Below, in pieces: positions 1 to 59,600 of a stretch of 64,000 nt of DNA (position 1 is the first letter of the stretch; every line of letters starts with the position of its first letter). The notes below the pieces were generated by a model. It was given only the letters and a program-made list of their open reading frames with translations. It made no database searches and was not told where the DNA came from. The position numbers and the translations under genes were made by a program. Source of the stretch: Clostridia bacterium (GTDB taxonomy: Bacteria > Bacillota > Peptococcia > DRI-13 > SM3-B62); NCBI GenBank assembly GCA_018433675.1, contig JAHDQS010000006.1, positions 2,425 through 66,424 of the forward strand. The letters are read 5' to 3'.

Positions 1-2510
1 TACCAAGGATCGAAGGTCACAGCGCCTACAACGGCATCACCGCTTCCTTCGGGATTAGACTCATGCGTCGGGCCACTGGCATCACCCCACCAGTTCTTTT
101 CGGCTCCAATCACAAAGTCATTTGTTGGAGTACCTTGTACCTTAACACCATTATTGCCATTTCCTTCAATGGCATTATTACTGACCGTAACATCTGATGC
201 CCTGTTATAAAGGACAACACCATGATACTCTCCGTCCAAATCTACAATTACCCCATCCTCACCGTTATTATAAATATTGTTGTCTTCAATTGTAAGTCCA
301 GCTATTACCGGACCGGAATAGATGCCATGCTTAGCATTGCCGTATATCTCATTATTACTAATAGTAAGATTTTCGGGGCCATATGCCGAAGTATCTCCTT
401 TATCACCGGAACCCCTCAACAACACGATACCATTGCCGTATTTAAGGTTTTTCGAGGTATCTCCGCACCCGTTATCATGGATAGTGTTATTTCTGATAAT
501 TAAATTCTTGAACCCTCCCGCTGTCTCAATGCCGGAACGATGAGAACCGAATATATCGTTGTACTCGATAACTGTCCCATCCATTGGGCTAGGTTCGGCT
601 GCACCATAAGAGTGATATGCGGACCACACGAAAACGTTGTTGCCATTACCTTCGGCTCCGAATATCTTATTGTAGGCAAAGGTGCTATTCTTAACACTTA
701 AAGCACTGTTGTATGGATCGTTGACAATATACAAGCCCATCCGTCCATGCGTACCGTCTTGCTCTCCTACCTTAGTAAACGGGCCGATGATATTGTTGAT
801 TACTTGTATGTTCTCAATAGAAGAGGTTGCTTTTCTTGTAGTAACCCTGACTAACGAGGACAGAGCGTTTCCGTTAGCGTTAAGTACCTGCACCACAAAC
901 CCATCAAAAGTAACATCACTAGTTCCATTAATGTCCATAACGCAATCACCGGAGGAACTCGGATCCGGATGCTGAATAACGCTCTCGCCCGATTGATCCC
1001 AGATTTCTGTCGAATTTACATTGTAACCTCTTTTATCTACGCCATGGGTTGCGCCCAATAATGTCAGCGGCTTAGTAATTGAAATTACCTCATTGTAGAG
1101 GCCTGCGGCCACTTTAATAGTGTCCCCGGCCGATGCCGCGTCGATTGCCGACTGGATTGAGGTATATGTAGTATGCTGCCCTTCGTGGTTGCCTACAAAT
1201 AACGTCTTGTTATTATATTTAAACTTTACAGCACCACTGTTATATATTCGCAATGTCGGCAACTCATCTTCAGGCTTAGTTGCATCGCCGCTTATTCCAT
1301 CAACATTGGGCTTTTGCATATCAAAGCCCGGCTCATTGAGACTTTCATCCGCTAATTCTGTATATGTAACCGGATTGTCCGTAAAAGTATTATCGGTTAC
1401 ATCCAATGTTTCTGATGAACTACCTGCATTCTTAATCAATATTTCCGAATACCAATTGTTATCAAAGATGTTTTTGGTCACCTTAACAGTTGAAAAGTCC
1501 GTATTATCGCCTTGAGAATAATAGACAATTCCCAATGTCCAGTTTTCGGATATCGTGTTTCCGCTTATCTCTGTACTGTTAACATTATTTGTTAGATTAA
1601 TTCCTGTTCTGTTATTGTAAACCGTGTTATTCTTGATAATATTTCCTTGGCAATCGTTTAGGTAAATGCCATTTCTATTGAGCGTGACAACACAATTCTC
1701 CAATGTATTTCTTGTAGTCGTAGGTTTAGAAAAAGTAACGCCATTGTTGTTGAAATTCCAATTTTGAAGTTCCGTATCCGTATATTCGTGGGTTAGCGTA
1801 AACCCACTCACTGTGGCACCATCTGTATTGAAACTCAACGGATATGAGTTCCCATCCGTGGCAACAATTTTTGTCTTATCGGCACCGTCAACACCAATAA
1901 TAGTCACCTTTTTATTAACAACTACATTTTCTCTATACACCCCGGCAGACACCTCGATGATATCACCGGGATCTGCATCATCTATAGCATCTTGAATAGA
2001 TTCACCTTCTCCTACCTCCAGAGTCGCCGGTCCGGTACGCAAAGCATAAGACATAGGCTTTTCTTTTAACCCATCTTCTACTTTTGGTTCCTCCTCAGTT
2101 GCGGGAAAAACTGCTGTGACAACTCCCGAATCCTCATCGTATATCGTTTCTGCTCCATCTACCGTGAAGAAATTGGCAGATACACCAGTCAATGTGAATC
2201 CTTCTTTAGGAGTAAGACTGATCGTTGCCGTATATACCGTTTCGGCAGCAAACACATCATCTTCCGGGTTCCAGGCAATTTCACCCGTGTACTGCTCTGT
2301 TTCGGTTATTTCTGTTACCGGAGTCTCACCTGTCACCGGGGCTTTTACCCCTTCAATTGCTGCAATACTGATTGTCTCAGCAGAGTCGTCTCCCTCTCCC
2401 GGAGCAATTACGGGTTCATCTTCTGCAAAAACCGATACGGGAATTATTATTGTGAACATCATGGCAAGCAATACCAGAATAGATAATAACTTTCTATGAT
2501 TACCCAACAT
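1..2510 (-). CDS. secreted right-handed parallel beta-helix repeat protein (3' end beyond window, at least 836 codons)
   Basis: Absent from the ORF track because it has no stop in the window. The reverse complement of 2508-2510 is ATG, preceded by GGAGG (2521-2525). The N-terminus MLGNHRKLLSILVLLAMMFTIIIPVSVFAEDEP reads as a signal peptide. The same frame at the window edge reads DFVIGAEKNWWGDASGPTHESNPEGSGDAVVGAVTFDPW, typical of NosD/pectate-lyase-like beta-helix domains. Plus-strand ORFs across 222-2499 are short and low-complexity shadow ORFs. Confidence 0.7.
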   Translation of the reverse strand, partial: MLGNHRKLLSILVLLAMMFTIIIPVSVFAEDEPVIAPGEGDDSAETISIAAIEGVKAPVTGETPVTEITETEQYTGEIAWNPEDDVFAAETVYTATISLTPKEGFTLTGVSANFFTVDGAETIYDEDSGVVTAVFPATEEEPKVEDGLKEKPMSYALRTGPATLEVGEGESIQDAIDDADPGDIIEVSAGVYRENVVVNKKVTIIGVDGADKTKIVATDGNSYPLSFNTDGATVSGFTLTHEYTDTELQNWNFNNNGVTFSKPTTTRNTLENCVVTLNRNGIYLNDCQGNIIKNNTVYNNRTGINLTNNVNSTEISGNTISENWTLGIVYYSQGDNTDFSTVKVTKNIFDNNWYSEILIKNAGSSSETLDVTDNTFTDNPVTYTELADESLNEPGFDMQKPNVDGISGDATKPEDELPTLRIYNSGAVKFKYNNKTLFVGNHEGQHTTYTSIQSAIDAASAGDTIKVAAGLYNEVISITKPLTLLGATHGVDKRGYNVNSTEIWDQSGESVIQHPDPSSSGDCVMDINGTSDVTFDGFVVQVLNANGNALSSLVRVTTRKATSSIENIQVINNIIGPFTKVGEQDGTHGRMGLYIVNDPYNSALSVKNSTFAYNKIFGAEGNGNNVFVWSAYHSYGAAEPSPMDGTVIEYNDIFGSHRSGIETAGGFKNLIIRNNTIHDNGCGDTSKNLKYGNGIVLLRGSGDKGDTSAYGPENLTISNNEIYGNAKHGIYSGPVIAGLTIEDNNIYNNGEDGVIVDLDGEYHGVVLYNRASDVTVSNNAIEGNGNNGVKVQGTPTNDFVIGAEKNWWGDASGPTHESNPEGSGDAVVGAVTFDPW

Positions 2511-2595
2511 TCTTAATTTCCTCCTTATACATAATATTCTCTTATTTAAAGTCCTGTCGCTCTCTTGTTGATATAAAGCTTGTCTAATAACACCT

Positions 2596-2702
2596 AAAAA
2601 AACAAAAAGCCGCATAAACACATAGTTTATACGACCGGTTGCACCACTGGCTCTGCGCAAATCAGGTGCCCAGATTTCCCTGCGCTTCATAGCTTTCGTA
2701 CA
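2596..2702 (-). promoter_or_regulatory. candidate c-di-GMP-II riboswitch with terminator expression platform
   Basis: The minus-strand RNA is UACGAAAGCUAUGAAGCGCAGGGAAAUCUGGGCACCUGAUUUGCGCAGAGCCAGUGGUGCAACCGGUCGUA. It contains UGGGCACNUGA and GUGCAACCGNNCG blocks, as I recall them from the crystallised Clostridium acetobutylicum class-II c-di-GMP aptamer. P1 would be UACGA/UCGUA. The aptamer is followed by the hairpin CGUAUAAAC-UAUGU-GUUUAUGCG plus GCUUUUUGUUUUUUU (2596-2633). Confidence 0.55.
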
Positions 2703-2707
2703 CAGTA

Positions 2708-2742
2708 ATTATAGCATATCCGGCTTTTAATAGTTAATAATT
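2708..2742 (-). promoter_or_regulatory. candidate sigma-A promoter for the riboswitch/beta-helix gene
   Basis: The minus strand reads TTAACT, an 18 nt spacer, then TATAAT (-10 at 2713-2708). The predicted start lies just upstream of the riboswitch P1 helix. Confidence 0.45.
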
Positions 2743-2863
2743 ATCTTTTATATTCATAATATTTAGTATGTATATTCTCTATTTACCATTCATTATTTAT
2801 ATTGCGAACTATACACACAAGCAAAGATTGCTGTCGGGTTCCTGGAGCTTTGTTATTTCCGCT

Positions 2864-2895
2864 AAAAAAAGGGGCTCGCTTCCCGGCGATAACCC
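2864..2895 (-). terminator. rho-independent terminator after the phosphodiester glycosidase gene
   Basis: Minus strand GGGGUUAUCGCCGGGAAGCGAGCCCC followed by UUUUUUU. Confidence 0.7.
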
Positions 2896-2915
2896 CATTT
2901 TAAGCCTTACTGCAT

Positions 2916-3959
2916 TTATGGTAATATCACAATATTCGTCACAACAGGACGTGCACTGCCATCCGAAGGCTTGTTTAATATCTCCTTATCATAAACAAAG
3001 GTACTGGAACCGCCGCCGTCAAGATTGTATGCCTCTTTAACCCCTAGTTCCACCAATTTATCAAGCAGTGCTTCCAAAGTAACGCCACTGCTCCAGTTTG
3101 ACTGGCGACCATCTACGACAATCATAATGAGGTCACCGTTTGCATATTCACCAATGATGGTACGCGGCTGTCTTGTCAACTTCCAATCCTCATGAATAGG
3201 TCTTACTATCCCGCCCTTGATCAAAATAGGGATGAAGCTCACGCCATGTATGGGATTAAGCCCCATCAGCTGATCTTTTTCAGAGAATATCCCGCCAATC
3301 AGACGCCCCTCTCTGTCTATTCCCGCAAAATGCAGATCCGGGGGATATGGATTGAACGGTCCCACCAGCTTCCCATTAATAATCAGATTCCCAATATGCT
3401 GAGCATAAGATTTGCCGTCCCGCATCTCAGAATAAAAGCCGCCTCCGTTAATAGCCAGTATAGCCCCGGTCCTCTCTGCTGCTGCAAGAGTCGTTTCCTT
3501 TTCACCAAGTGTATCCTTAGCTAATACCACCTTAAAAGCCGACGGATCGAAGAGCTTCACCTTGGCAATATAACCGCGATAGCCGATTTCCTTTAATTCG
3601 AAAACCTTAATCTCAACTCTCCGAGATTTATAGTCCTTAACAGGAGGCCCCAGCATCTTCAATATCCTGTCTTCATATATCTGTTCGGACAGGTTCTTTT
3701 GTTCTGAAACCTGAGTTGTCAGTTGATCTAATGTCTCGTGCTGTTCTCGGTAGCCTGACTCCTGAAACTGTGCCATGTTCGCTACAGCGGCAATTTCCTC
3801 CCCAAACAGTTTAAGCTCATTTTCAACCGTTTCAACACTTACCCTGACAGTTTCAACCGGCAGGACGACCGCCTGCATATCGCCGACAAACATAAAAACA
3901 GCAACTCCCAATCCGAGTAACGGTGCCAGCAAAAATACCATTAGCTTTTTAACTGACAT
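2916..3959 (-). CDS. phosphodiester glycosidase family protein (DUF2233/NAGPA-like), membrane-anchored
   Basis: 347 aa with an N-terminal TM segment. The AINGGGF and NLDGGGSS motifs are typical of this family. Confidence 0.7.
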   Translation of the reverse strand: MSVKKLMVFLLAPLLGLGVAVFMFVGDMQAVVLPVETVRVSVETVENELKLFGEEIAAVANMAQFQESGYREQHETLDQLTTQVSEQKNLSEQIYEDRILKMLGPPVKDYKSRRVEIKVFELKEIGYRGYIAKVKLFDPSAFKVVLAKDTLGEKETTLAAAERTGAILAINGGGFYSEMRDGKSYAQHIGNLIINGKLVGPFNPYPPDLHFAGIDREGRLIGGIFSEKDQLMGLNPIHGVSFIPILIKGGIVRPIHEDWKLTRQPRTIIGEYANGDLIMIVVDGRQSNWSSGVTLEALLDKLVELGVKEAYNLDGGGSSTFVYDKEILNKPSDGSARPVVTNIVILP

Positions 3960-4387
3960 TAGGGTGCCTCCTTCAGTACCTGCAGGCTCTTTTGCAGTTC
4001 CAGCAGTTGTGATTCCAGTTCAACTATCCTTCCGCTTAGTTCCCTCTGTATATCACCCGAACTGGAAAGTGTCTGACCTGTCATGTTCAAGCCGTTTTTT
4101 AACGCTTGTATATCAGAAGCAATTGCATCCAAACGATCGTTTACCGCTTTTATATTCATCGCATTCGTTTGCTGTATATTCTGCATAGACTGATCAATAT
4201 ATGTTTTGGCAACATAAAATCCTCCCGCAACAAGACCTAACCACAAAACAACACCCAACAGAATTCCCGCCCAGGCAGTTGTCTTTTTTCTTTTCCTACC
4301 TTGCAAATACTGAGAATCGCTTCCCCTTCTGATTTCCTCACTATTTTTTACTTCACTGCTCACGATATTACCCCCGCTCTTCGGCAT
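3959..4387 (-). CDS. hypothetical single-pass membrane protein with coiled-coil ectodomain
   Basis: 142 aa with one TM (WAGILLGVVLWLGLVAGGFYV) and a heptad-like C-terminus. Its stop abuts the start of the downstream gene. Confidence 0.5.
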   Translation of the reverse strand: MPKSGGNIVSSEVKNSEEIRRGSDSQYLQGRKRKKTTAWAGILLGVVLWLGLVAGGFYVAKTYIDQSMQNIQQTNAMNIKAVNDRLDAIASDIQALKNGLNMTGQTLSSSGDIQRELSGRIVELESQLLELQKSLQVLKEAP

Positions 4388-4406
4388 CCCGGTTTAACAT
4401 CACCGG

Positions 4407-4763
4407 CTAGAATGCCGCCTTGATCAATTCTATCGACTTAATTTTGTTATTATTGCCAATCAGCACACCAACCACGTCAAACCTACAGCTCTTGTTCCAT
4501 AAACCTTTATCCTTCAAATACGCGCTTGCCAGTCGTCTTAGTCTTTGCTGCTTTGCCCAATTGACCGTCTCCTGTGGGAACCCGAAACGTATTCCTTGTC
4601 TGCTGCGAACCTCAATAAATACCAAAGAACCTTGATCTTCGGCAACAATATCAATTTCCCCCAGGGATGACCTGTAGTTCCTTTCAAGGACAACATAACC
4701 CAGACTTTCTAGATACCTAACGGCTGCATTTTCAGCCCTGCGGCCTTTCTCCGTCTTTTTCAC
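4407..4763 (-). CDS. yraN: YraN family endonuclease (UPF0102)
   Basis: 118 aa. GEIDIVA...LVFIEVR...KQQRLRRLASAYL is the typical YraN pattern, and the gene sits in the conserved position next to rnhB. Confidence 0.8.
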   Translation of the reverse strand: MKKTEKGRRAENAAVRYLESLGYVVLERNYRSSLGEIDIVAEDQGSLVFIEVRSRQGIRFGFPQETVNWAKQQRLRRLASAYLKDKGLWNKSCRFDVVGVLIGNNNKIKSIELIKAAF

Positions 4764-4802
4764 GAAACCACCCCGTTTTACCCGGCACTAGACCCTCGTT
4801 CC

Positions 4803-5582
4803 TCATCCTATAAATTTCTGAATAAAACTCATCCTATGTACCGGACAGGGTCCGTGCTCTGTCAACGCTTTCATGTGCAAAAGTGTCCCATAGCCCTTAT
4901 GCTTGCGGAAATCGTACTGAGGATATATGGTATCCATCTCTTCCATTAAAAAATCACGATGTGTTTTAGCTATAATAGATGCTGCGGCAATCGACGCACA
5001 AACAGCATCACCATGAATTATTCCCTCTTGTCTAATATCTGTCTGTATATTCATGGCATCAATCAAGAGGTAATCAGGCTTAACGTTCATGTCTTCCACT
5101 GCTAGAAGCATAGCTTTTTCTGTAGCATTAAGAATATTTATACGATCAATCTCTTCGTTATCTACAAGCCCAACCCCCCAGGCCACCGCACAATCTTTAA
5201 TCTGCCCAGCCAGCTTTTCTCTCATCCCCGGCGACAACTTTTTTGAATCATTCAAACCAGTCAACTCCACACCGCAAGGCAACAGCACACATGCCGCCAC
5301 TACCGGACCCGCCAAAGGTCCTCGGCCCGCTTCGTCGATCCCGGCTACCTGTAGAAAACCTTTTTTTTGCAGAAGCCGCTCCTTTTCCCAAAGAACTGCC
5401 AAGCGATTGCTTTCCTCTTTTTCACGGAACAGCATCTTTTCGTAGCGCTCAACAAGGGTTTTTACACCTTTACGCTTGTCATACCTCAATTCTTCGAGGA
5501 TCTCATCCCTACCCTTTCCCGCTTCATACAACAACGATTGAAGCTCTGAAACACTCATTTTCTCTCTTTCTGCTTTATTCAT
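4803..5582 (-). CDS. rnhB: ribonuclease HII
   Basis: 259 aa. AGIDEAGRGPLAGPVVAA and DSKKL motifs are present, with synteny to ylqF. Confidence 0.9.
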   Translation of the reverse strand: MNKAEREKMSVSELQSLLYEAGKGRDEILEELRYDKRKGVKTLVERYEKMLFREKEESNRLAVLWEKERLLQKKGFLQVAGIDEAGRGPLAGPVVAACVLLPCGVELTGLNDSKKLSPGMREKLAGQIKDCAVAWGVGLVDNEEIDRINILNATEKAMLLAVEDMNVKPDYLLIDAMNIQTDIRQEGIIHGDAVCASIAAASIIAKTHRDFLMEEMDTIYPQYDFRKHKGYGTLLHMKALTEHGPCPVHRMSFIQKFIG

Positions 5583-6433
5583 ATACTTCTCCTTATGTCA
5601 TCCATAGTTACAGCTCCAAGCTTCCCGCTGCGAAACTCCTCCAGCAAAACCAAGGCACCCTTTTCTGTCTCAATTATACCGCCGGTCCTGACAAATCCGC
5701 GCCTTTTACTTATCCGAGTCATTATCTCCTCTACAGAAAGTTCCTCGTCAACACCATATCTCTGAAGTATTCTACCGGGTATATTAACGCATAGCCACTC
5801 AACCAACCACCTTGCTATGTCTTCGACATCTAGTGCCCTTTCTCCGACGGCACCGGTTACTGCCAACTTGTATCCGACTTCGGGATCCTCGATCTTTGGC
5901 CACAGAATACCCGGCATATCCAGTAATTCAACATCTCTGCCGATCTTGATCCACTGTTTACCTCTGGTAACGCCCGGTTTATTCCCTGTTTCTGCTGCTT
6001 TACTGCCTGCCAGGAAATTGATTAGCGTTGACTTTCCAACGTTTGGTATACCAACAACCATCGTCCTTACTACAGTTTTAATTATACCTTTTTTCTTCCT
6101 TTTTTCAATGACACCCTGAGCCTGTTCCCTGATACCCTGAAGGAGACGGTTTCTTGCAGAGCCCTTGCCATGCAAGGCATCAATCGGTATTGCCGAAAGA
6201 CCCACACCCTCAAAATGTTTTAGCCACTCTGCCGTTTTTTCCGGATCAGCTAAATCCTCTCTTGTTAACACCAATACCTTTGGCTTATTGATAATAATAT
6301 CGTCCAACAAGGGATTACGGCTGCTTACAGGAAGCCTCGCATCAGCCAATTCCAGCACTACATCCACCAGATTGATGTTTTCCGTGATAAGGCGTTTGGT
6401 TTTAGCCATATGCCCCGGAAACCATTGTACCAT
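5579..6433 (-). CDS. rbgA: ribosome biogenesis GTPase YlqF/RbgA
   Basis: 284 aa. The protein starts MVQWFPGHMAK and has circularly permuted GTPase motifs (NKPKVLVLTREDL, GIPNVGKST). Confidence 0.9.
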   Translation of the reverse strand: MVQWFPGHMAKTKRLITENINLVDVVLELADARLPVSSRNPLLDDIIINKPKVLVLTREDLADPEKTAEWLKHFEGVGLSAIPIDALHGKGSARNRLLQGIREQAQGVIEKRKKKGIIKTVVRTMVVGIPNVGKSTLINFLAGSKAAETGNKPGVTRGKQWIKIGRDVELLDMPGILWPKIEDPEVGYKLAVTGAVGERALDVEDIARWLVEWLCVNIPGRILQRYGVDEELSVEEIMTRISKRRGFVRTGGIIETEKGALVLLEEFRSGKLGAVTMDDIRRSI

Positions 6434-6499
6434 TTTACTCGCCTCCCAAAAGACAACACAGCTTACGCGAAATAATCGCCTTTTTGTTTATATTATATA

Positions 6500-6530
6500 G
6501 AAACAAAGGGACTGAATAATTCAGCCCCTT
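6500..6530 (-). terminator. hairpin/terminator after rplS
   Basis: Minus strand AAGGGGCUGAAUUAUUCAGUCCCUU followed by UGUUUC. The U tract is weak. Confidence 0.45.
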
Positions 6531-6555
6531 CAACCACCATCCGAAATTCAACTAT

Positions 6556-6900
6556 CTACTTTGCCCGCTCTTTGATTCTGGCAGCCTTACCCGAACGCTG
6601 ACGCAGATAATAAAGCTTGGCTCTTCTTACTCTGCCCAGACGTACGACTTCAATCTTCTCCAATCTGGGTGAATGTACGGGAAAACAGCGCTCAACTCCC
6701 ACACCATAGGAAACACGACGCACGGTGAAGGTCTCACTCAAACCGCTTCCTTTTCTTTTTATAACAACACCTTCAAATACCTGTACCCTTTCCCTGCTGC
6801 CCTCAACAACCTTAACGTGTACTTTCACGGTGTCACCGGGACGGAATTCAGGTATATCATCGCGAAGATGTTCTTTTTCCACAGCTTTGATAAAATCCAT
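6556..6900 (-). CDS. rplS: 50S ribosomal protein L19
   Basis: The track ORF is trimmed to the internal ATG at 6900 ([11 protein letters not shown]...), which is preceded by GGAGG. The sequence is a typical L19. Confidence 0.9.
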
Positions 6901-7028
6901 AATATACAACCTCCTTCCCACATGAACGTTCATATCCCACCCTCAGGTCAGGACAGCGGACCATCCGTTCTCACAAGCGCAATGCGCAACCGTTTTGTAT
7001 TATATCATAACACTTTGCCAACAAGCAA
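6901..7028 (-). promoter_or_regulatory. rplS promoter plus structured leader (possible L19 autoregulatory leader)
   Basis: The minus strand reads TTGCTT (7028-7023), an 18 nt spacer, then TGATATAAT (-10 at 7004-6999). A GC-rich leader of about 95 nt follows, with paired segments GCGCAUUGCGC and GGAUGGUCCGCUGUCC. Firmicute rplS genes commonly carry an L19 leader at this position. Confidence 0.4.
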
Positions 7029-7029
7029 C

Positions 7030-7605
7030 TTATTTCCACCATTTTTCTCCCAAAAGCCTGTCTAAAATGATAGAAACGGCGCTCCTTACGGAAAGATGAT
7101 TGTATTCAGCCCCACCCTGGATCGGTTCCAGCACATAATCTGCCGTGGCAACAGTTTCTTCTGTCATTCCCCAGCCAGTTCCGAACAAAAGCAAATAGTT
7201 GCTGTTTGTCCCATTTTTTAACTGCTCACGCAAATAACTGTAAGATACACTCTTCGGTGACCTTTTCGCATCAGTCGCTACCGTATAAACCGGACCATGG
7301 TATTCCTCCTTGATCCCCTTAACCGCACTTTCAATGGAATTAGTCAACTTAATAAGACCCACGGCTTCTTTGCGGTCCGGGTTATAGGCGGCACCAAACC
7401 CCTCATGCCAATAATCGACTATCTCCTGTACAAGCTCGTGATGCGACTGTAAAGGATGAATAATATAATAACGATTTAAGCCATAGGTCGCCGCACAACG
7501 CGCTATATCGTGGATGTCAAGGTTTGTAACCGAAGTAGCTATAACATCCATGTTTTTGCTGTAAACAGGATGATGAACCAGACCTAAAAAAACGCGGTTT
7601 ATCAT
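7030..7605 (-). CDS. SAM-dependent RNA methyltransferase-like protein (TrmD-adjacent family)
   Basis: 191 aa. Its start forms an ATGA overlap with the trmD stop. The family is a conserved neighbour of trmD in Clostridia. Confidence 0.55.
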   Translation of the reverse strand: MINRVFLGLVHHPVYSKNMDVIATSVTNLDIHDIARCAATYGLNRYYIIHPLQSHHELVQEIVDYWHEGFGAAYNPDRKEAVGLIKLTNSIESAVKGIKEEYHGPVYTVATDAKRSPKSVSYSYLREQLKNGTNSNYLLLFGTGWGMTEETVATADYVLEPIQGGAEYNHLSVRSAVSIILDRLLGEKWWK

Positions 7606-8339
7606 TTTTCGGTTCTCTCCTCGTTCAGTATTTCAGCCAGCAATACTTCGTCCTCACGACACAATTTAGCTCTGTCCAACAAGTCCGGTCTGCGTAGCAA
7701 GGTACGCCGCAAAGACTCCTTACGCCGCCAGCGTCTTATCTTTTCGTGATTACCGGATAGCAAAACATCAGGAACAGCCATCCCGCGAAACTCACGGGGT
7801 CGGGTATACTGCGGATGCTCAAGCAGGCCGTCATAATGGGAATCAAAGCAAGCAGACTCTTCCTCTCCCAAAACACCGGGAATAAGGCGACTTACGGCAT
7901 CGATTACGACAACTGCCGGTATTTCCCCCCCCGTCAGTACATAATCACCGATTGACACCTCCTGATGGGCCAGCTTCCTAATCCTTTCGTCAAACCCTTC
8001 ATAATGCCCACAAATGATAGATAACCTTTCCTCCCCGGCCAGTTCCTTAGCCATCCCTTGTGAGAACTTCTCACCCTGGGGGGTCATCAAAAGCACCTTC
8101 CCATAATCTCCCTGCAAACGATCTTCGAAGGCGTAATAAACAGGTTCAGGCTTAATCACCATACCGGCACCACCGCCAAAGGGATAGTCATCTACGTTCT
8201 TATGCTTGGAAGGAGCATATAGCCTGTAATCTATCATTTGAATGCGAACAAGCCCTCTCTCCCTGGCCTTTTGCATAATACTCGTATTTAACGGCCCCTC
8301 AAACATCTCAGGAAATATCGTAAAAACAAAAATATCCAT
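7602..8339 (-). CDS. trmD: tRNA (guanine37-N1)-methyltransferase
   Basis: 245 aa. YPFGGGAGMV, GHYEGFDERI and SIGDYVLTGGE motifs are present. Confidence 0.9.
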   Translation of the reverse strand: MDIFVFTIFPEMFEGPLNTSIMQKARERGLVRIQMIDYRLYAPSKHKNVDDYPFGGGAGMVIKPEPVYYAFEDRLQGDYGKVLLMTPQGEKFSQGMAKELAGEERLSIICGHYEGFDERIRKLAHQEVSIGDYVLTGGEIPAVVVIDAVSRLIPGVLGEEESACFDSHYDGLLEHPQYTRPREFRGMAVPDVLLSGNHEKIRRWRRKESLRRTLLRRPDLLDRAKLCREDEVLLAEILNEERTEK

Positions 8340-8360
8340 AGTCCCTCCGCTTTAAAACAC

Positions 8361-8855
8361 TTAATCCAACAAGCCGGGCGGTAGCTTAACCTCGATTTTG
8401 CCCGCCTCGACATCAATGTTGCGCACGACTTCTTTAAGTGCCGGAAGATATATTTCCTTCCCTTTAGGGACTTTGACTACATAAACATCATTACTTCCCG
8501 TTTGTAAAATATCCGACACTTCCCCCAACAGCCTGTCATCCTCATAAACTCTCAAGCCGACTATTTGGAAATGGTAATAGTGCCCTTCCGGCAATTTCTT
8601 GAGTTCTTCAACCGGCAATTCCAAATATGATCCCTGTAATTCTTTGGCACTATCCATATCTTCTCTTCCCTGCAATAAAAGAAGCACATACCCCTGGTGC
8701 ATTCTGGCCTTTATGACATGATACTCATTATCAGCTATAAACACATGGTCCAAAGCAAAGAACCTGTCCGCATCATCAGTTAATGGTAGCACCTTCAGTT
8801 CACCTTTGTAACCGTGAGTATTAATAATCTTACCGATCTTTATGTAAAGTGGCAC
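8361..8855 (-). CDS. rimM: 16S rRNA processing protein RimM
   Basis: 164 aa with a GTG start after GGTAGGTG. GKIINTHGYKGELKV and the PRC barrel C-terminus are present. Confidence 0.9.
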   Translation of the reverse strand: MPLYIKIGKIINTHGYKGELKVLPLTDDADRFFALDHVFIADNEYHVIKARMHQGYVLLLLQGREDMDSAKELQGSYLELPVEELKKLPEGHYYHFQIVGLRVYEDDRLLGEVSDILQTGSNDVYVVKVPKGKEIYLPALKEVVRNIDVEAGKIEVKLPPGLLD

Positions 8856-8865
8856 CGTAACACAC

Positions 8866-9599: not shown

Positions 9600-9914
9600 T
9601 TATTCACTTACCTCTTGTACTTCTTGTACTTCTTGTACTTCTTGTACCTCTTCCGCTTTGACTTGCTTTTTGGAAATAATTCCTGCTTTTGTTAACAAAG
9701 CCTTGGCCGTATCGGAAGGTTTTGCGCCTGTTCCTAACCAATATGCGGCCCTCTCTTCATTAATCTTAACAACTGTAGGCTCTTTGGTCGGATCATAATA
9801 CCCAATTTCTTCAATGAACCTTCCGTCACGCGGTGAGCGGGAATCAGCAACAACTAAGCGATAGAACGGATTCTTTTTTGCTCCCATGCGTTTAAGTCTG
9901 ATACGTGTAGCCAT
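9600..9914 (-). CDS. rpsP: 30S ribosomal protein S16 with repetitive acidic C-terminal tail
   Basis: The protein starts [35 protein letters not shown]. The tail is [18 protein letters not shown]. Confidence 0.9.
9612..9650. repeat. 9-bp tandem repeat (about 4 copies) inside the rpsP 3' end
   Basis: ctcttgtac ttcttgtac ttcttgtac ttcttgtac. The repeat is in frame and encodes the (EVQ)n tail. Confidence 0.85.
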
Positions 9915-9960: not shown

Positions 9961-11313
9961 TTATTTTAAGAAAGGAAGATTGAAGCTCCCTTTTTTACCA
10001 CCCTTAGTTGCTGTCTGCAGTTGGTTCATCTGTTTTATCAGTTTCAACGAATGTTCATACTGCTTGATCAGCTTATTGACCTCCTGCACGGAAGTACCGC
10101 TCCCTCTGGCTATCCTTTTTCTGCGACCTGCATTAAGTATCTCCGGTTTCCTGCGTTCTTCCACCGTCATCGAGTAGACAATTGCTTCGGTCTTTTTAAG
10201 GTCATGCTCGTTTATTTCAATATTTTTCATACCCTTCATTTTTCCCATACCGGGGAGCATATCCATGATCTGATTGATCGGACCCATTGACTTCATCTGC
10301 TGCAATTGATCAAGAAAATCTTCCAAGGTATACTCATTCTTCCGGAGCTTCTGCTGAAGCTGCGCCGCCTTTTTTGCATCTACACTATCCTGTGCTTTTT
10401 CAATAAGTGTCAGCACATCGCCCATTCCCAAAATACGGGAGGCCATCCTATCAGGATAAAAAGGCTCTAGGGCTTCCAGCTTTTCCCCCATCCCCACAAA
10501 TTTAATGGGTTTCCCCGTAACAGCCTTCACAGAAAGGGCCGCACCACCGCGGGCATCTCCGTCCAGCTTAGTCAGTATTACACCGTCCAAGCCTAAACGA
10601 TCATTAAATGCTTCGGCAGCATTAACTGCATCCTGTCCTGTCATAGCGTCCACCACAAGCAGAATCTCATGAGGCCGGCACTTTTTCTTGATTCCTTCCA
10701 GCTCCGACATTAAGTCCTCATCTATGTGCAAACGTCCAGCCGTATCAATGATTAACATGTCTTTTCCTTGCTTTTCCGCAAAAGAGCGAGCTGCTTCAAC
10801 GATGTCGACGGGTTTGCTTTTATCTCCTATCGTAAAGACAGAAACATCAAGATTCTCTCCTAGTATCTGCAGCTGTTTAATGGCCGCCGGACGATAAATA
10901 TCACAGGCTACAAGTAGAGGGTTCTTTCCTTGTTTTTTTAAAAGCAGGGCCAGTTTCCCGCAGGTGGTCGTCTTGCCTGCTCCCTGCAGTCCGACAAGCA
11001 TCACCACAGTCGGCGGTTTGGAAGACATATTGAGTTTGCTGAGACTTCCGCCCATCAAAGCCGTCATTTCTTGGTTAACGATTTTAACGACCTGCTGTCC
11101 CGGCGTCAGGCTCTCCAACACCTCGGCGCCAACCGCTTTTTCTTTGAGATTATTAATAAATTCTTTTACAACTTTATAGTTAACATCAGCCTCCAACAAC
11201 GCCATCCGTATTTCCCGCATAGCCTGGCTGACATCCTTTTCGGAAAGCTTCCCCTTACCGCGTAGATTCTTAAATACACCCTGTAGTTTTTCCGCTAAAC
11301 TTTCAAAGGCCAC
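9961..11313 (-). CDS. ffh: signal recognition particle protein Ffh
   Basis: GLQGAGKTTT and DTAGR motifs and a Met-rich M domain are present. The preferred start is GTG at 11313 (VAFESLAEKLQ), 7 nt after GGTAGGTGA. The track start TTG at 11331 would overlap ylxM. Confidence 0.9.
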   Translation of the reverse strand: MAFESLAEKLQGVFKNLRGKGKLSEKDVSQAMREIRMALLEADVNYKVVKEFINNLKEKAVGAEVLESLTPGQQVVKIVNQEMTALMGGSLSKLNMSSKPPTVVMLVGLQGAGKTTTCGKLALLLKKQGKNPLLVACDIYRPAAIKQLQILGENLDVSVFTIGDKSKPVDIVEAARSFAEKQGKDMLIIDTAGRLHIDEDLMSELEGIKKKCRPHEILLVVDAMTGQDAVNAAEAFNDRLGLDGVILTKLDGDARGGAALSVKAVTGKPIKFVGMGEKLEALEPFYPDRMASRILGMGDVLTLIEKAQDSVDAKKAAQLQQKLRKNEYTLEDFLDQLQQMKSMGPINQIMDMLPGMGKMKGMKNIEINEHDLKKTEAIVYSMTVEERRKPEILNAGRRKRIARGSGTSVQEVNKLIKQYEHSLKLIKQMNQLQTATKGGKKGSFNLPFLK

Positions 11314-58253: not shown

Positions 58254-59600
58254 TCACCTGCTAACGGTTCGCAACTGTTTGCCGTTATCCCACAACCTTT
58301 CTGGGACAACGTCATTTCTGATCAAATCCTCATAAGTTTCTCCGGCAACTATTATTTCAGCCTTACCATTATCTACCAAAACCACAGCCGGTCGAGGCAG
58401 ACGATTGTAATTGCTGGACATCGAATAATTGTAGGCACCAGTTGACGCGACAGCTAAGATATCGCCGCTTTCCATTTTTGGCAAGTTAATATCCCATATC
58501 AGCATATCACCTGATTCACAGCACTTACCCGTTATCGACACCATTTCCTCAGGCGAAGCATCGGCTTTATTTGCTACTATGGCCTCATACTTTGCCTGAT
58601 ACAAGGCCGGACGCGGATTGTCTCCCATGCCACCGTCAACGGCAACATAATTCCTTATTCCGGGAATATGCTTAATTGAACCAACGGTATAGAGAGTTGT
58701 TCCTGCCGTACAGGAAATTGACCGTCCCGGTTCAATTATGACTTTGGGAATTTGCAGCCCCATCTTTTCCGCCTGCTGGGCAACAGTACCCAAAATAACA
58801 TCAGCGAACTCGTTGATAGGTACGGGCTGATCCCCCTCCTTATAGTAAACGCCAAAACCTCCACCCAGGTTTAATTCGGCAATACCTATCCCCAGGTTGT
58901 CCTTGATTTGCTTGACAAATCCCATCATCACCTCAGCCGTATGACGGAATGATTCTATTTCGAATATTTGTGATCCTATATGACAATGAAGTCCTTCCAA
59001 ATCGACGTTCTTTGCAGCATACGCCATTTTTACCATATCCAGCGCCTGTCCGGTGGCTATTGCCATTCCAAATTTAGAGTCGATCTGTCCGGTCTTAATA
59101 TATTCATGTGTATGAGCTTCGATCCCTGGTTGGATGCGAAGAAGGATTTTTATCTTCTTTTTACACTTTTCTGCTGCATCTTCAAGGATGGCCAATTCAT
59201 GCGGATTATCAACAACAATGCGGCCTATATTACTTTTTAAAGCATATTCGATTTCTTCCTGTGATTTGTTATTGCCGTGAAAATAAATACGCTCGGCCGG
59301 AAAACCTGCCTTCATTGCTGTATATAACTCCCCGCCGGAGACCACATCCAGCCCCAGTTTTTCCTGGGCTATTATCCTGGCCATCGCCAGATTAAAAAAA
59401 GCCTTGCTCGCGTAAATAACCTCGCTTTGCGGATATTTTGCCATAAAGGCTTGATAATATTCACGGCACACATTTCGTAAATGCTCCTCATCCATCACAT
59501 ACAAGGGTGTACCAAATTCCTTAACCAATTCTACAGTATCACAGCCTCCTATCGTAAGGTGTCCTTTTTGGCTTATTTGCATAGTACCGTGCATCTTCAT
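58254..59600 (-). CDS. lysA: diaminopimelate decarboxylase
   Basis: 448 aa. It has a PLP-dependent Orn/DAP/Arg decarboxylase fold (YASKAF, GGGFGV, CESGD). Confidence 0.9.
   Translation of the reverse strand: MKMHGTMQISQKGHLTIGGCDTVELVKEFGTPLYVMDEEHLRNVCREYYQAFMAKYPQSEVIYASKAFFNLAMARIIAQEKLGLDVVSGGELYTAMKAGFPAERIYFHGNNKSQEEIEYALKSNIGRIVVDNPHELAILEDAAEKCKKKIKILLRIQPGIEAHTHEYIKTGQIDSKFGMAIATGQALDMVKMAYAAKNVDLEGLHCHIGSQIFEIESFRHTAEVMMGFVKQIKDNLGIGIAELNLGGGFGVYYKEGDQPVPINEFADVILGTVAQQAEKMGLQIPKVIIEPGRSISCTAGTTLYTVGSIKHIPGIRNYVAVDGGMGDNPRPALYQAKYEAIVANKADASPEEMVSITGKCCESGDMLIWDINLPKMESGDILAVASTGAYNYSMSSNYNRLPRPAVVLVDNGKAEIIVAGETYEDLIRNDVVPERLWDNGKQLRTVSR

Follow-up and report, generated by a model that had tools for sequence, protein, structure and literature searches.

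A canonical class-II c-di-GMP riboswitch, predicted to act as a transcriptional ON switch, in the leader of a secreted beta-helix protein gene of uncultured Clostridia

The minus-strand interval 2737..2511 of the window, the whole 64-kb stretch of Clostridia DNA analysed here, very probably constitutes a promoter and a leader with a canonical class-II c-di-GMP riboswitch, which acts on transcription as an ON switch for a secreted beta-helix surface protein. The promoter, aptamer, terminator, ribosome binding site (RBS) and start codon (ATG 2510) all lie on the minus strand, with the riboswitch in cis in the 5′ UTR of the downstream gene. The minus-strand sequence 2742..2596 is letter-for-letter that quoted in the initial annotation, which had assigned the element to this riboswitch class and proposed a covariance-model search as a check.

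The Rfam 15 covariance models (4227 families) were run against both strands of the full 64-kb window, and the E-value given here refers to that search. The c-di-GMP-II family, RF01786, matches 2706..2624 with 62.3 bits, above its gathering score of 53.5, and E 1.7e-11; the alignment spans the full length of the model, positions 1-84 of 84. Two matches in the whole window exceed the gathering score, this being one of them. A lower-scoring match of the same clan overlaps the site and was set aside by the scan, leaving RF01786 at the top of its clan. The proposed check is therefore positive for class II, and c-di-GMP-I (RF01051), the other family named, has no match at the site. A more permissive scan of positions 1..6000 (E <= 1) returned RF01786 alone, with no c-di-GMP-I element, ribozyme or second aptamer.

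The Infernal alignment keeps 30 of the 34 upper-case consensus positions. Four positions differ: one couple makes up a single P1 pair, in which G-C has become A-U by compensatory change, and the other two reside in the P2 loop. The core blocks UGA, UGGGCAC, GAG, AGU and GUGCAACCG follow the consensus throughout. Among the base pairs of the model, 18 of 22 are canonical, with the mismatches located at the outer end of P1 and at helix ends. P1 is formed by 2702-2696 with 2634-2628; its core is the UACGA/UCGUA helix that had been predicted, which can be extended to 7 pairs. In the Rfam model P1 continues outwards over 2706-2703, but this part contains two mismatches and probably lies outside the transcript, so that a short P1 of 6-7 bp would remain. 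P2 is interrupted, pairing 2693-2692 with 2651-2650 and 2685-2679 with 2661-2655. The pseudoknot blocks are UGGGCAC (2672..2666) and GUGCAACCGG (2644..2635). The RF01786 model leaves the pseudoknot unscored; read from the sequence, it joins the P2 loop to the 3′ joining region, with GCAC complementary to GUGC and UGG to CCG.

The aptamer is missing from the structures predicted by plain minimum free energy (MFE) folding of the leader, for which the z-scores are insignificant. Such a failure has to be expected of an RNA whose fold is pseudoknotted and ligand-dependent, yet thermodynamics alone gives the fold no support. Stated structures were therefore evaluated explicitly in place of MFE folding. 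In every family feature that can be checked in silico the element agrees with RF01786, and c-di-GMP is its predicted ligand. No GGDEF or EAL genes were seen among the ORFs of the 64-kb window in a crude motif scan, a slice of this size saying little on the matter.

The RNA would be transcribed from a sigma-70-type promoter at 2737..2708, which has 10 of 12 matches together with a TG. The TATAAT box reported at 2713-2708 is present and is extended by this TG (2716-2715) to TGcTATAAT (2716..2708). The -35 element is TTAACT (2737..2732), separated from the -10 by an 18-nt spacer. The -10 and its TG are unchanged in a sister Clostridia metagenome-assembled genome (locus L001), in which the -35 differs. 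As the -10 box ends at 2708, transcription is expected to start near 2702-2700, a few nucleotides past the extended -10, so that the RNA would begin near P1. Upstream, a hairpin followed by U7 (2896..2864, minus strand) lies 3′ of the neighbouring gene. Its folding energy is -13.6 kcal/mol with a z-score of only -0.57, which is weak alone. It probably shields the riboswitch unit from upstream read-through, and it suggests that this is a separate transcription unit.

The aptamer is followed by an intrinsic terminator (2636..2596). This has the sequence GGUCGUAUAAAC-UAUGU-GUUUAUGCGGCU followed by UUUUGUUUUUUU: a 12-bp stem of 2636..2625 with 2619..2608, the loop UAUGU, and a U-tract at 2607..2596. 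The hairpin folds at -14.9 kcal/mol (z -4.99), and none of 200 shuffled sequences folds equally well. All 12 nucleotides of its 5′ arm lie inside the aptamer: the arm opens with the GG of the conserved CCGG and continues with the seven nucleotides of the P1 3′ strand. The overlap between P1 and the terminator had been noted in the initial annotation. As the arm shares the P1 3′ strand, P1 and the terminator are mutually exclusive. The state that combines the terminator with P2 has an energy of -21.4 kcal/mol, compared with -10.5 kcal/mol for the nested aptamer, the contributions of ligand and pseudoknot being excluded. The terminator state is thus approximately 11 kcal/mol more stable, which makes termination the predicted default (OFF) and means that read-through would need the ligand-stabilised fold. 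Such a requirement corresponds to an ON switch, the logic that had been proposed, and this is supported by the exclusive pairing of P1 and terminator.

The spacer between the terminator and the start codon (2511..2595, minus strand) contains the RBS AAGGAGG (2526..2520) and is 88% identical in L001. Folding of the leader gave neither significant structure nor RBS-sequestering pairing in the spacer (whole-leader z +0.61). Since the RBS, and with it ATG 2510, is free of sequestering structure and separated from the U-tract by more than 70 nt, control is placed at transcription termination. A weak promoter-like site, GCGACA-18 nt-TATTAT, is found at 2560..2531 (minus strand), between terminator and RBS. 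This could give basal expression independent of the riboswitch; it is probably a chance match, as neither hexamer is kept in L001.

The proposed mechanism is as follows. At low c-di-GMP, the P1 3′ strand (UCGUAUA) and the adjoining GG of the core would pair with GUUUAUGCGGCU. The resulting 12-bp terminator and its U-tract would halt transcription about 90 nt short of the start codon. Binding of c-di-GMP would lock the pseudoknotted aptamer together with P1, leaving the 5′ arm of the terminator occupied. This would allow the RNA polymerase to read through, and the surface protein would be made.

The regulated gene (1..2510, minus strand) runs off the start of the window, which holds its 5′ part of 836 codons. 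The product is the large secreted beta-helix protein expected from the initial annotation: a signal peptide and an N-terminal domain of about 100 amino acids are followed by repeated right-handed beta-helix sequence (Beta_helix 9.8e-28, NosD 1.6e-12). The L001 ortholog (4001-8857) has 1618 amino acids and is 82% identical across all 836 residues. Further parts of it are a third region of beta-helix, an fn3 domain and, at the C-terminus, a pair of Cu_amine_oxidN1 domains. These last are read as wall-binding, and the extracellular protein is probably held at the cell wall. A search of solved structures with the L001 ortholog gave no close relative save for a short fn3 stretch (1k85, chitinase A1, E 1.2e-05). 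It was observed that L001 residues ~1290-1500, between fn3 and Cu_amine_oxidN1, are far better conserved than the beta-helix regions in comparison with the more distant locus L054 and have no Pfam match. This stretch may be an undescribed domain.

The nearest gene upstream of the riboswitch encodes a phosphodiester glycosidase (NAGPA), and the genes beyond it are housekeeping genes: rplS, an RNA methyltransferase, a ylqF-type GTPase, rnhB and a YraN-like gene. A 142-aa ORF (3959-4387, minus strand) in the interval from the YraN-like gene to NAGPA belongs to no Pfam family and has a 134-aa counterpart at the equivalent position in L001. Elsewhere in the window, a lysine riboswitch (RF00168, 59699-59876, minus strand, 71.3 bits) sits directly upstream of the gene 59600..58254 (minus strand). 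This gene is of the diaminopimelate-decarboxylase type (Orn_Arg_deC_N), an arrangement of ordinary lysA control. There are no tRNA genes in the 64-kb window.

The riboswitch recurs in relatives, both in the sister genome and, before homologous genes, in two further lineages. L001 carries RF01786 at the equivalent place with 63 bits. Between the window and L001, aptamer and terminator are 97.2% identical, compared with 86.0% for the coding sequence, 86.5% for the upstream spacer and 90% for the NAGPA gene. The three substitutions comprise a change of G-C to G-U, one in an unpaired part of P2 and one towards the consensus. L054, from a more distant genome, encodes a 1901-aa beta-helix/Cu_amine_oxidN1 protein that is 46-52% identical. 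Its RF01786 match scores 68.9 bits; the P1 and terminator sequences are the same as in the window, and P2 is fully covaried (AUGCAGUU/AACUGCAU). Where the window, like the consensus, has GUGCAACCGG, the L054 aptamer (303-386) has GUGCACCCGG, with C replacing an A of the conserved AA dinucleotide in the core.

Two mutually syntenic metagenomic loci, L034 and L037, encode shorter beta-helix proteins with signal peptides, 27-29% identical. RF01786 matches these loci at 53.8 and 68 bits, respectively, and their downstream terminators use the 3′ end of the aptamer. P2 covaries in both, and the L034 pseudoknot, UCAC with GUGA, is a compensatory change. The design in which the 5′ arm of the terminator competes with the aptamer is common to all four relatives. 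As RF01786 is present at these loci as well as in the window, the link between class II and secreted beta-helix proteins is a recurrent one and no one-off. Most of the beta-helix homologs from genome and metagenome scans belong to unrelated phyla, among them CPR, archaea and Dehalococcoidia, and are without the riboswitch, the Rfam scan of homolog loci having covered 33 of 53.

Other readings of the site have to be weighed against the c-di-GMP-responsive ON switch. The aptamer could be genuine and bind another ligand, such as a different cyclic dinucleotide. There are precedents in the c-di-GMP-I variants that bind c-AMP-GMP and in the uncharacterised Rfam classes c-di-GMP-II-GAG and -GCG. The overlapping lower-scoring match of the same clan speaks for this reading, as does the L054 change from GUGCAACCGG to GUGCACCCGG, by which the core tolerates some change in the lineage. 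It is nonetheless very unlikely: the canonical model is the best of its clan and above its gathering score, the conserved core blocks are all consensus, and the sister genome L001 has c-di-GMP-I aptamers of ~88 bits nearby, indicating that c-di-GMP signalling is present in the lineage. A decayed, non-functional relic or a chance covariance-model match is harder still to credit. The score does exceed the gathering threshold by only ~9 bits and P1 is short, but the E-value is 1.7e-11 and the element is conserved above its flanks between the window and L001. Compensatory P2 changes in L054, L034 and L037 and a matched terminator that is always present further argue that the element is maintained.

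The element could also be an OFF switch, or it could control translation or RNA stability instead of transcription termination. A few class II aptamers do differ in their platform, for example the one fused to a group I ribozyme in C. difficile (PMC9481103), and the promoter-like site at 2560..2531 lies past the terminator. Such a platform is improbable here, to about the same degree as a different ligand. The 5′ arm of the terminator is the P1 3′ strand itself, hence the mutual exclusion, and the RBS, over 70 nt past the U-tract, is unsequestered. The scan of 1..6000 at E <= 1 brought up neither a ribozyme nor any further Rfam family, and L001 has not kept the promoter-like site. A transcriptional ON switch for c-di-GMP is therefore the preferred reading.

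Among the closest known counterparts is the C. acetobutylicum c-di-GMP-II aptamer, the crystal structure of which was reportedly solved by Smith et al. in 2011 (PDB 3Q3Z; cited in PMC7583470). The window element shares with it the blocks of the pseudoknot/triplex ligand pocket, UGGGCAC and GUGCAACCG, a likeness by family consensus, and it differs from it in the sequences of P1 and P2. Reported affinities of class II aptamers range from 200 pM to 2 nM (PMC7583470). Studies in C. difficile have shown that all four of its class II c-di-GMP riboswitches are ON switches, three of them acting through transcription elongation; their targets are CD2831, CD3246, cmrRST and the pilA1 operon (PMC6200980, PMC11477304). 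The anticipated fit to known biology is documented for C. difficile, in which such switches precede adhesin and pilus genes (PMC6200980, PMC11477304). The window element resembles Cdi2_3 (of the collagen-binding adhesin CD2831), Cdi2_2 (CD3246) and Cdi2_4 (pilA1) in its Rfam family, its occurrence within the Clostridia, its place in the 5′ UTR of a gene for a secreted or surface protein and its predicted transcriptional ON logic. It differs from the C. difficile set in its target, a multi-beta-helix/Cu_amine_oxidN1 protein as opposed to a pilin or an adhesin anchored by sortase. The host differs as well, being an uncultured environmental Clostridia lineage in which regulation is predicted from sequence.

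A second type of c-di-GMP aptamer is found beyond the surface-protein gene in relatives. In L001, tandem c-di-GMP-I aptamers (9600-9686 and 9808-9894; 88.9 and 88.4 bits) lie 743 nt past the stop codon of the surface-protein gene, with a small ferredoxin gene in between. The first aptamer has its own hairpin and U9. An 8-nt aptamer 3′ strand, GGGUUGCC, is complementary to GGCAACCC within the U9 terminator, and identical octamers are found in L054. This geometry suggests an OFF switch.

The ORF behind the tandem aptamers of L001 (9944-10633) encodes 229 amino acids with a signal peptide, the motif HELGH and the block EIFAEDFR. Its family comprises no fewer than 77 protein clusters, with a usual length of ~210-245 amino acids (range 177-296) and no informative name in any source. 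Across the family there is little or no variation in the H-E-x-x-H motif, a Glu further downstream and the F-A-E-D-F-R block. The Pfam family ATLF corresponds to peptidase M34, which comprises anthrax lethal factor and the Pro-Pro endopeptidases (PPEPs). It is matched by 21 of 32 members, mostly below the curated cut-off, with the L001 protein at 17.8 bits against 27.4. The family profile aligns with lethal factor (2l0r) across the zinc-site motifs at E 0.033, and a PDB search with the single protease sequence gave only noise. The best Foldseek matches of an AF2 model of the protease (pLDDT 92.7) are lethal factor catalytic domains (probability <=0.98, E ~1e-2, TM ~0.35), and the comparison with PPEP-2 gave a TMt of 0.42-0.49. 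By these matches, the protease appears to be M34-like but distant.

The label of Pro-Pro endopeptidase was considered for this protease and rejected, as repeated PPxP sites are missing from the surface proteins. PPxP sites are absent from the window fragment, the L001 protein and the L061 and L056 neighbours, and were seen only in a Pro-rich linker of L054.

Nine protease loci were compared: L001 and eight sampled through exact-protein look-ups (L054-L061, the protease gene being at 7001 in each). In seven of the nine, the protease gene is immediately preceded by one or more c-di-GMP-I aptamers. The other two loci have divergent copies without a riboswitch, one in a prophage tail-gene cluster (L058) and one in a mobile-element-like region (L060). 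The former locus also has an RT-18 RNA match at 10842-10918. In L001, L054 and L061, three of the nine, the surface-protein gene next to the protease gene carries a c-di-GMP-II aptamer. L001 and L054 have a beta-helix/Cu_amine_oxidN1 protein as the neighbour under class II control, and L061 has an SLH protein; the protease gene lies 3′ of the surface-protein gene in the first two and is convergent with it in L061. Elsewhere the protease gene neighbours a sortase gene together with that of a SpaA/SdrD adhesin, a lone sortase gene, or the gene of a Cu_amine_oxidN1 protein. With regard to the tandem of L059, upstream of a protease homolog, the aptamer at 6653-6737 is best matched by c-di-GMP-I-GGC (RF03167, 63.4 bits) and that at 6830-6914 is a canonical c-di-GMP-I. 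The syntenic locus L056 has two canonical c-di-GMP-I matches.

These loci recall two known pairs, CD2831 and PPEP-1 of C. difficile and VMSP and PPEP-2 of Paenibacillus alvei, in which the substrate gene adjoins the protease gene and both are under c-di-GMP riboswitches (PMC8610288). L001, L054 and L061 likewise pair a surface-protein gene under class II with the gene of a secreted HEXXH metalloprotease under class I. Unlike the PPEPs, the protease of the L001/L054 type is only distantly M34-like, and the neighbouring surface proteins are without repeated PPxP. In a survey from 2021, c-di-GMP riboswitches in the vicinity of PPEP-like genes were confined to C. difficile and Paenibacillus group A (PMC8610288). 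It is possible, if somewhat doubtful, that uncultured Clostridia possess a conserved attach/release module with two riboswitches. In this module, a high level of c-di-GMP would turn on the surface protein through class II and would turn off, through single or tandem class I aptamers, a small secreted metalloprotease encoded nearby that releases or processes it. The proposal draws on the relatives, as the window stops inside the surface-protein gene and the protease region would fall beyond position 1. Look-ups with the exact proteins of two window genes and with P0001, a 93% identical protease, gave no record that extends past this point. The protease family of the putative module has no description in the literature searched and would be a distant counterpart of anthrax lethal factor and the PPEPs.

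The riboswitch of the window is an ordinary, canonical instance of a well-studied class, which routine Rfam-based annotation would flag. Its modest significance lies in placing an uncharacterised giant beta-helix surface protein into the c-di-GMP, sessile-lifestyle regulon of uncultured Clostridia. Together with the class-I-controlled protease of the relatives, it yields a candidate, amenable to testing, for another and independent system of adhesin release of the PPEP-1 type. If this is true, the logic of PPEP-1 and CD2831 would reach a new protease family and a new type of substrate.
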